In this document: positions 58,401-61,400 of the stretch, one piece after another | How the letters are laid out: each line of letters starts with the position of its first letter | Position numbering within the stretch: position 1 is the stretch's first letter | NCBI RefSeq assembly: GCF_057098645.1 | Contig: NZ_CM169472.1 | Direction: 5' to 3' (one strand) | DNA: 64,000 nucleotides | Program-made: the position numbers

Positions 58401-61400
58401 TTCGGCCAGCAACCGAGACTTCAATGTTTAAGGATTCCAGTTCCTGGTTATCCTTCGCATCAAACTCTTCGTGCAACTGGTCAGAGGTATGGTCGCGGCG
58501 AAAATCATTGGGAAACGCCACACCTTGCTGACGTAGTGCCGCCAGTTTTTCGCGGCGATTTCTCAGTTCATCGTTAAAATCAATAGCCTCATTGGCTCCC
58601 CGTGTTTCTTGTTCAGACATTTTGGTTCCTCTAAATCCAGCTTTCAATTTAGCGTAGATAAAGAGACAGATCGGTACACTGTATTATCTGCCTCGACTAT
58701 TAGTAACTCAGTTTATCTTATCGAAACTAACGCTTACCTCAAGTTGATATCACTAATAAATAACCATCAAAATGGTTTAAATGACTTATTAATATCGATT
58801 TGCTAGTGTTATAAACTGAAAGTTAATTTATTCATAACCAATTGTTTTTACGACAGTTAATCGTTGCTCTCCTGTACCATATTCGTCGGCGTGCTAAACA
58901 GGAAACGGGTAGCAAAGGCCAATACGACGATGATCGCGACACAAGCCAACGTCCACTCTCCCATCTGAGAAAAGAATCGCTGGTAAGCTGCAATTGCCAT
59001 ACCGCTAATTTGCGACTCTGTCGTCTGCTGTGCCACTACGCCTGCCAGCCAGTTGGCGACCGCGCCTGTTGCCAGCATATAAATCCCGGTTAATACGCCA
59101 GACATTTTCAGACGCGTGATTTGCGCAATCGCCACCGGGTCAATAAAGAGTTCGGCAAAGCCCATTAGCGCCAACCCGGATATCATCACGCCCATTGACG
59201 CTTGACCGTCAGCCGCTGCATGTCGGGCATCAAATGCCAGCAACATAAAGCCACAAGCCATCAGCAGTAAGCCAAAGGCAAACTTCAGCCAGACGCGCAA
59301 TGTTGAGTTGCCGTGGCTTTCTGGCGACGCCAGCCAGGCCAGAACAACCCCAGCGAGCATCACCGCAATTGCATTCACCGACTGGAATAGTGCAGTAGGT
59401 ACTTCAATATTGAATGCCTGACGATTCACAAAGCGATCGATAAACAGACTGATGGTACTGCCGCCCTGTTGTGCCAGTACCCAGAACAATGTCCCGACAA
59501 ACATCAACAATACAATTTGCCAAAGAGCACGGCGGTGTTCGGGGAATTTGATCATCATGCGGGCAATGATTTGTGCGGCGATAAGGCAAACGATCGCCAG
59601 CAAATATCCGGACCAGTCGTTCTCCAGCAGCAGAGTAAAAAATACTGGGGCTAAACAGAGCATCACCACTAACCAGCTCCATACTGGTAAGGCAAATTTG
59701 ACACTAGTGAGCGCTTTTTTATCCATACTACGCGTGGACTGGAAATGACGATGCCCGCTTAAGAAAATCAACAAACCGATAAACATGCCGCCACCCGCAA
59801 GGGCAAAGCCAACATGCCATCCATACCACTGAGCAGCCAGGCCGCAGGCGATTGGGGCGGCGATAGAACCGATATTGCCCGCAGCATACAGCAGCGAAAA
59901 ACCGCCATCACGTCGATGATCGTTCTCGTCGTAGAGCTCGCCAAGCAAACAGCTGATGTTTGATTTGAATAAACCGTAGCCACAAATAATGATTGCCAGC
60001 GCCAGATACAGGCTAAAGGTTGAATTTGTATCAATGCCCAGCACCACATGGCCAAGAGTCATTAACAGCGCGCCGGCAATCACTGCAGTGCGGTTGCCGA
60101 GCAGGCGGTCGGCAAGCCAGCCGCCGAGAATAGGGGTAACGTAAACCAGAGAAGCATATGCGCTGAACAGGCTGATGGCATGGTTATCATCAAAACCAAG
60201 CTGATGGGTGAGATAGAGAATGAGTAAGGCACGCATGCCGTAAAAACTGAAGTACTCCCAGATTTGGATCGCCACGATATAGTATATCGCGCGCGGCTGT
60301 GAGGGTGTTTTCATGTGTTCTCCTTATGAGCAAAAAAGGGAAGTGGCAAGCCACTTCCCTTGTACGAGCTAATTATTTTTTGCTTTCTTCTTTCAATACC
60401 TTAACGGTATAGCGGCCATCAGCCTGACGGTATGCACCGTGAATATCGGTTTCAAAGCCCGGATAGTGAGCGCCGATTTCACACAGCATCTGCAGGAACT
60501 CCAGAACCGGACGGCTTTCTTCGGTGATCATTTCACCCGGCATTACCAGAGGAACTCCCGGCGGATACGGAAGGATCATATTGGCGTTAATACGACCTAC
60601 CATTTCGTCGAGGTAAACTTCTTCGGTCATACCGTGCAGCTCTTTCTGGAACGCAGCATACGGAGTCATTACCATCGTCGGCAGCACTTCAAATGCGCGA
60701 TACATCAGATCCGGCAGATTGTGGTGAACAATCAGTTTGTGGATATTCTGAGCCAGTTCCTGAATACGCATGTTTTCATAGAATTCAGGATCTTCACGAT
60801 ACAGAGACGGCAGCATGTTTTTCACACGCAGGTTCAGGTCGAACGCACGTTTGAAGTCAGTCAGAGCACGCAGCAGGCTCAGTGCTTTGGTCTTATCGAT
60901 ACCGATGCTGAACAGGAACAGCAGGTTATACGGACCGGTTTTCTCAACAACGATGCCATGTTCGTCGAGGTATTTCGCCACGATGCTGGCCGGAATACCG
61001 AAGTCGCTCATGGTGCCGTCTTTTTCCATCCCCGGAGTCAGCAGGGTGACTTTGATCGGGTCAAGATACATGTGCTCATTATCGATGTTTTTGAAGCCGT
61101 GCCAGGTGCTGTCAGAACGCAGCGGCCAGCATTCAGTCGTATCGATATGATCCGGCTGCCATACATCAAAGAACCAGCCATCAGATTCCGTTCTCAGACG
61201 TTTGATCTCTTTACGGAATTTGATCGCACGTTCAATGGAACCGTTGATCAGACGCTTACCAGCATTACCTTTCATCATCGCCGCAGCGGTTTCAGTGGAC
61301 GCCACGATACCGTAGTGCGGAGAAGTGGTGGTGTGCATCATGTAGGCTTCGTTAAAGGTTTCTTCGTTTACGTCACCTTTAACGTGGATCATGGAAGCCT

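Follow-up and report, generated by a model that had tools for sequence, protein, structure and literature searches.

In Escherichia coli, read-through of at least 5% has been reported at 75% of termination sites, with 151 of 408 reaching additional genes (Yan et al. 2018; PMC6131387). In the operon extensions described there, e.g. prs-dauA and dapA-bamC, a hairpin and U-tract lie between co-directional genes and the level of the downstream gene is set by the read-through fraction, the gene being co-regulated with the upstream promoter. The CadC-activated cadBA operon (PMC2270276, PMC3096576) ends, in the literature searched, at the terminator after cadA, and neither a third gene, dtpC (yjdL), nor its acid co-induction is described there. 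The present analysis concerns that terminator and the dtpC gene beyond it, in a window (the whole stretch of DNA that was analysed) of 64,000 nucleotides from NCBI RefSeq assembly GCF_057098645.1, contig NZ_CM169472.1, which at this locus corresponds to E. coli, the K-12 MG1655 coordinate being the window position plus 4296097. The gene order on the minus strand is cadB, cadA, dtpC, lysU, so that the promoter, genes and terminator of the two-gene operon are followed by dtpC on the same strand. The junction has the same hairpin and U-tract between co-directional genes as the read-through extensions, and it would likewise couple the downstream gene to the upstream promoter through the read-through fraction. 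That fraction appears to be about 1 - 3%, which is lower than the figure of at least 5% at most E. coli sites, and the 7 - 14 nt from stop codon to hairpin give no space for an attenuator or antiterminator. The link between cadBA and dtpC is not described in the literature searched, where co-mentions of dtpC and cadB draw no connection and where transcription of yjdL/dtpC is not covered. The proposal that dtpC belongs with cadBA, which we infer from synteny across more than 20 genera and from co-regulation, is therefore new relative to the accessible literature.

The intergenic region between cadA and dtpC (60315-60372) comprises 58 bp, from the TAA stop of cadA at 60375-60373 to the dtpC ATG at 60314-60312. 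On the minus strand, in the 5' to 3' direction, the sequence TTAGCTCGTACAA fills the 13 nt from the stop codon to the hairpin core and is followed by the hairpin GGGAAGTGG-CTTG-CCACTTCCC, by TTTTTT, GCTCAT, AAGGAG and AACAC, and then by the ATG at 60314. In the transcript the hairpin GGGAAGTGG-CUUG-CCACUUCCC spans 60359-60338, its core of 9 bp with a CUUG tetraloop (GGGAAGUGG-CUUG-CCACUUCCC; 60338..60359) being recovered by scan, fold and covariation, and flanking AA/UU pairs can extend the stem to 60361-60336. The six U residues immediately 3' of the stem (60332..60337) are followed after 6 nt by the dtpC Shine-Dalgarno (SD) sequence AAGGAG (60320..60325), which lies 5 nt before the ATG and is essentially unpaired in the predicted fold. 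The original prediction, in which a terminator stood directly upstream of the dtpC ribosome-binding site with less than 60 bp between the two genes, is borne out in both respects, but its estimate of about 20 nt from the end of the U-run to the ribosome-binding site was wrong; the distance is 6 nt (the last U, at 60332, is 17 nt from the ATG), and the juxtaposition is thus tighter than first described.

The features expected of an intrinsic terminator, a GC-rich stem-loop with a stem of 5 - 14 bp and a loop of 3 - 8 nt, an adjoining 3' U-tract and a position just past a stop codon, are all present. A terminator scan returned an 11-pair stem (6 GC), a loop of 4 nt and a T-rich tail. The free energy of the hairpin is -17.6 kcal/mol, and a value of -22.6 kcal/mol (z = -2.77) was obtained on folding the surrounding 86-nt region. 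A perfect stem of 9 bp or more followed by a T-rich tail is found at only four sites in the window, compared to about 0.17 in Markov-random sequences. An A-tract in the last codons of cadA, AGCAAAAAA (60376..60384, minus strand), is able in the minimum free energy structure of the E. coli sequence to pair with the U-tract and GCU to give a longer terminator helix, but it is not conserved across the other genera, in which the C-terminus of cadA is variable. It is likely, and forms part of the best available explanation, that the hairpin and U-tract constitute the Rho-independent terminator of the acid-induced cadBA transcript. Two other identities for the hairpin were considered and rejected. 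Repetitive extragenic palindromic (REP) elements and bacterial interspersed mosaic elements (BIMEs) are likewise structured elements between co-directional genes, and REP elements stabilise mRNAs and act as partial attenuators. The hairpin of E. coli differs from these in possessing a U-tract and in being single-copy, the 22-nt sequence having one copy in the window and one in each of 5209 complete E. coli genomes out of 5426, with an identity of 99% or more in 5170; the two "places" per genome returned by BLAST are one palindrome matched on both strands, and a dispersed repeat was rejected. A regulated attenuator or riboswitch-type terminator was rejected since Rfam searches of 58500-64000 at permissive thresholds gave only chance-level matches, all far under gathering scores, and folds of 51 junctions revealed no conserved alternative pairing; there was also no sign of a regulated antiterminator, because the few nucleotides between stop codon and hairpin are not conserved. 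A separate observation is that 217 of the 5426 complete genomes had no match to the cadA-dtpC junction, as would be expected if some lineages have lost the cad region.

The arrangement is widely conserved. A scan with DtpC, taking one genome per species, found 54 loci in more than 20 genera, including Escherichia, Salmonella, Klebsiella, Raoultella, Kluyvera, Buttiauxella, Trabulsiella, Pluralibacter, Yokenella, Citrobacter, Shimwellia and Serratia. Upstream sequence was examined at 53 of them (L053 was left out, and only about 100 bp of upstream flank is present at L013 and L048), and at all 53 the DtpC orthologue was the gene immediately after cadB-cadA, in the same orientation. The intergenic region measured 54 - 72 bp in 38 of 51 loci, and a hairpin followed by a T-run was present at 49 of 53 readable junctions (47 of 51, plus the two with short flanks); it can also be seen in Salmonella Typhimurium in a published cadA deletion primer. 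The distance from stop codon to core stem, 13 nt in E. coli, was 7 - 14 nt in nearly all other genera, whilst the T-run contained 5 - 8 T in the Enterobacteriaceae and merely 3 - 4 in most Serratia. An SD sequence (AAGGAG or GGGAGA) stood at a constant distance from the ATG in all loci and within a few nucleotides of the T-run everywhere, except where a REP-like insertion separates the two. When 22 distinct hairpins were aligned consistently with their structure, 98.5% of alignment cells were paired, compared to 86.2 +/- 1.5% in shuffles, none of 500 of which matched the observed value, and 50 - 69% with slid partners. Compensatory double changes were found at four of the nine pairs (e.g. U-A to C-G or G-C, and G-C to C-G). 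This pairing and these compensatory changes across junctions mark the hairpin, on comparative sequence evidence, as a selected RNA structure.

Several junctions depart from the common pattern. GC-rich palindromes resembling REP/BIME sequences (GCCGGGTGGCG...) lie between hairpin and SD in L010, L025, L035 and L049, and REP-like palindromes stand in place of the canonical hairpin in L018, L028, L030 and L033, representing four genera; since the palindromes substitute for the missing hairpin in these four, a structured element is always retained at the junction. At two further loci, L036 (Superficieibacter sp.) and L037 (Buttiauxella agrestis), an insertion of about 120 - 150 bp immediately after CCCTT(T) parts the hairpin from its T-run, and in these species the terminator may no longer function. 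The similarity between the ends of the two insertions (GACAAAG... and ...GGTTTGYTATCAACC) suggests a small mobile element. One locus, L045, is titled Chryseobacterium sp. 18061 and carries an enterobacterial cadB-cadA-hairpin-dtpC arrangement with CadA 93% and DtpC 78% identical to the E. coli proteins; the assembly is probably mislabelled or contaminated.

Evidence that transcription passes the terminator comes from public expression data. Mean reads per kilobase per million (rpkm) were taken from the RNA-seq and ribosome profiling (Ribo-seq) data for MG1655 in Tables S3 and S5 of Schumacher et al. 2023. At pH 7.6, 5.8 and 4.4 respectively, the RNA values were 3.6, 312 and 1469 for cadB, 3.3, 534 and 2322 for cadA, and 4.8, 11.0 and 79.4 for dtpC, the ribosome footprints on dtpC being 5.9, 9.3 and 132.5 (Schumacher et al. 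2023). Thus at pH 4.4 dtpC was induced 16-fold in RNA and 22-fold in footprints, with a translation efficiency of 1.67. Its RNA amounted to 3.4% of that of cadA at pH 4.4 and 2.1% at pH 5.8 (cadA/dtpC ratios of about 29 and 49), or, when the neutral-pH baseline was subtracted, to 3.2% and 1.15% (ratios of 31 and 87). In the acid-shift arrays of Kannan et al. 2008, yjdL and cadA both reached a log2 value of 1.2 at 5 min, and 2.6 and 3.2 respectively at 10 min, whilst cadB stood at 3.1 and 4.7, the delay of yjdL being the same as that of cadA. In a commensal strain exposed to simulated intestinal fluid dtpC and cadB were both down-regulated. Co-regulation of dtpC with cadBA is therefore found in three independent public datasets.

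At low pH in the presence of lysine, the cadB promoter is activated by CadC. The mechanism favoured here, and probably the correct one, is that the terminator works with an apparent efficiency of about 97 - 99% and that the residual read-through makes dtpC acid-inducible. RNA polymerase would meet the hairpin 13 nt past the cadA stop codon and about 97 - 99% of complexes would end at the U-tract, the hairpin and U residues terminating most transcripts 13 - 43 nt past the stop, as indicated by the sequence together with the 30 - 90-fold drop in RNA. The leftover 1 - 3% of polymerases, judging from the rpkm ratios, would continue into dtpC, where the strong unpaired SD 6 nt beyond the U-tract would recruit ribosomes to the extended mRNA, the footprints showing that translation does occur. 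The terminator would then act as a fixed step-down valve through which dtpC inherits the acid inducibility of the cad promoter at a few per cent of the level of cadA, and such a low level of co-induction would be suited to a membrane transporter. The floor-level dtpC signal at neutral pH is cad-independent. As a mechanism this is ordinary operon extension by terminator read-through.

The main alternative is that dtpC has a promoter of its own, in the 3' end of cadA or over the terminator, which rather than the cad promoter drives both its basal and its acid-induced expression. This is considered unlikely, but some observations weigh on its side and against read-through as a complete account. 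At pH 7.6 the dtpC RNA (4.8 rpkm) is not below that of cadA (3.3 rpkm), both being near the floor, and the basal dtpC signal therefore does not come from read-through alone. Furthermore, the increase from pH 5.8 to pH 4.4 is larger for dtpC than for cadA; the apparent read-through fraction, a ratio of rpkm values that presumes equal stability of the cadA and dtpC RNA segments, accordingly varies 2.8-fold, from 1.15% at pH 5.8 to 3.2% at pH 4.4, which could reflect a second acid-responsive input or differing mRNA stability. The degree of read-through may itself rise with cad promoter activity. In addition, yjdL has been listed without cadA as 2-fold up on sigma-E induction. Neither cadA nor dtpC is listed in the end- and start-mapping tables of Adams 2021 and Yan 2018.

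Between 61078 and 60315 the minus strand carries no sigma-70 match of at least 9/12. A relaxed position weight matrix (PWM) scan with approximate matrices placed its best match, TTGAAA(60455-60450)-17-TACCGT(60432-60427), at the 99.999th percentile of the window; this candidate (60427..60455, minus strand) lies within cadA with a predicted start at about 60420. Only three of the six -10 positions match, however, the T at position 6 occupies a freely varying synonymous site, and the stricter scan was silent here. A start at about 60420 would in any case still be 5' of the terminator, so that read-through would be needed anyway. Other positions were tried and rejected. A promoter between terminator and ribosome-binding site was discounted because the 17 nt from U-tract to ATG are too short for a promoter plus an SD-bearing leader. 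TTGCCA-17-TAAGGA, overlapping the hairpin, lacks the T at position 6 of a -10 element that is itself not conserved, and an mRNA started from it would be leaderless and lack the conserved SD. A promoter over the cadA stop codon (AATAAT, 60377-60372) would have a spacing of just 13 nt to TTGAAA. A sigma-E promoter was sought because of the reported sigma-E response of yjdL, but the sole match was weak, about 440 nt upstream and at chance frequency. More generally, the conserved short spacing of 54 - 72 bp leaves no room for a promoter, and the last 120 codons of cadA show no excess synonymous conservation (entropy 0.58 - 1.04, compared to a gene mean of 0.815, sd 0.148), and no conserved embedded element is therefore detectable towards the 3' end of the gene. 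In a separate part of cadA, 60886-60942 (codons ~523-545), synonymous variation is the lowest in the gene, with an entropy of 0.43 in a 15-codon window among 45 species, which may be due to codon bias or to an embedded element. As far as can be judged from the sequence, there is no convincing or conserved sigma-70 promoter upstream of dtpC and TTGAAA-17-TACCGT is a low-confidence candidate; the gene has its own conserved ribosome-binding site and no conserved promoter was found, yet its basal RNA equals or exceeds that of cadA at pH 7.6, implying that some initiation is independent of cadBA. The original prediction had posed the matter as an either/or, a promoter overlapping the cadA 3' end or terminator, or dependence on read-through from cadBA. 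Synteny, co-regulation and a dtpC level of about 1 - 3% of cadA speak for the second branch and the lack of a conserved promoter speaks against the first, but the second is upheld only in part, given the basal signal at pH 7.6 and a read-through fraction that is not constant.

A further possibility is that the terminator is effectively complete and dtpC unlinked to cadBA, the acid signal arising from an unrelated regulator or as technical spill-over from an abundant transcript. The element does look strong, with a GC-rich stem of 9 - 11 bp, a stable tetraloop, six U residues and an upstream A-tract, and dtpC RNA lies 30 - 90-fold under that of cadA. It is nevertheless difficult to reconcile complete termination with a 22-fold rise in footprints over the 1.46-kb dtpC open reading frame at the translation efficiency seen, with co-regulation in all three datasets, or with the synteny of the 53 loci and an SD that is always directly after the hairpin; moreover, no other acid-responsive promoter is evident, and this explanation is considered improbable. 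Equally doubtful is the suggestion that the hairpin was selected mainly for RNA stability or processing, as a 3' stabiliser of cadBA or the end of a small RNA derived from the cadA 3' end, with dtpC incidental, for although stem sequence and structure are very conserved and REP-like palindromes replace the hairpin in four genera, all the canonical terminator features are present, including a U-tract that a pure stabiliser would not need, no Rfam family matches, and such a role would be compatible with termination whilst leaving the conserved adjacency of the dtpC SD unexplained.

If expression of dtpC by a leaky terminator is accepted, the question of function arises. YjdL/DtpC shows a preference, tied to Asp392, for dipeptides whose C-terminal residue is lysine (Jensen et al. 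2012), and Asp392 is invariant in 50 of 50 intact orthologues. In view of the preference, low-level co-induction of DtpC could supply CadA with peptide-derived lysine. The cad genes are mentioned neither in Jensen et al. 2012 nor in the DtpC cryo-EM paper. It is possible, though tentative, that the Cad acid-resistance module includes dtpC as a conserved third gene, which is expressed via a conserved leaky terminator at a few per cent of the level of cadA and encodes a proton-coupled importer of X-Lys dipeptides, the lysine from these fuelling CadA when free lysine is scarce. Were read-through to be confirmed, cadBA, in textbooks an operon of two genes, would in practice comprise three, DtpC, which is structurally well studied, would gain a testable role in lysine-dependent acid resistance, and the junction would be a clean, evolutionarily conserved case in which a strong terminator serves as a fixed step-down of about 30 - 100-fold from an abundant enzyme to a membrane protein. 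As the mechanism is well known, the gain would be one of annotation and physiology and not of concept. Three dtpC frames among the relatives are truncated although the contig continues, to 77 aa in L039 (Kluyvera genomosp. 3), 138 aa in L048 (Trabulsiella odontotermitis strain 01) and 318 aa in L052 (Serratia rubidaea), and these may be pseudogenes or assembly errors.

The genes flanking the junction all lie on the minus strand. The acid-induced transcript begins with cadB (62600..63934), which encodes the lysine:cadaverine antiporter and whose CadC-dependent promoter is at the window end or beyond. The lysine decarboxylase gene cadA (60373..62520) encodes 715 aa with a translation 100% identical to K-12 CadA; a mechanical open reading frame begins at an ATG at 62559 (728 aa), the annotated and conserved start being 62520. 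The proton:dipeptide symporter gene dtpC (58857..60314) encodes 485 aa. No intrinsic terminator was found after it on the minus strand in a scan of 58648-58856, the intergenic region before lysU, which is AT-rich and contains matches resembling a lysU promoter. Among the loci compared, lysU is the gene after dtpC only in those of Escherichia, Klebsiella/Raoultella and Buttiauxella and in Pseudescherichia-like ones. LysU has been reported to be acid-induced and less sensitive to cadaverine than LysS, and for this reason the cluster looks like a lysine/acid neighbourhood. Besides the junction hairpin, the window has perfect stems of 9 bp or more with T-rich tails only at 30779-30802 (minus strand), 25291-25315 (minus strand) and 39544-39569 (both strands), the last of which has such a tail on each strand and resembles a bidirectional terminator.

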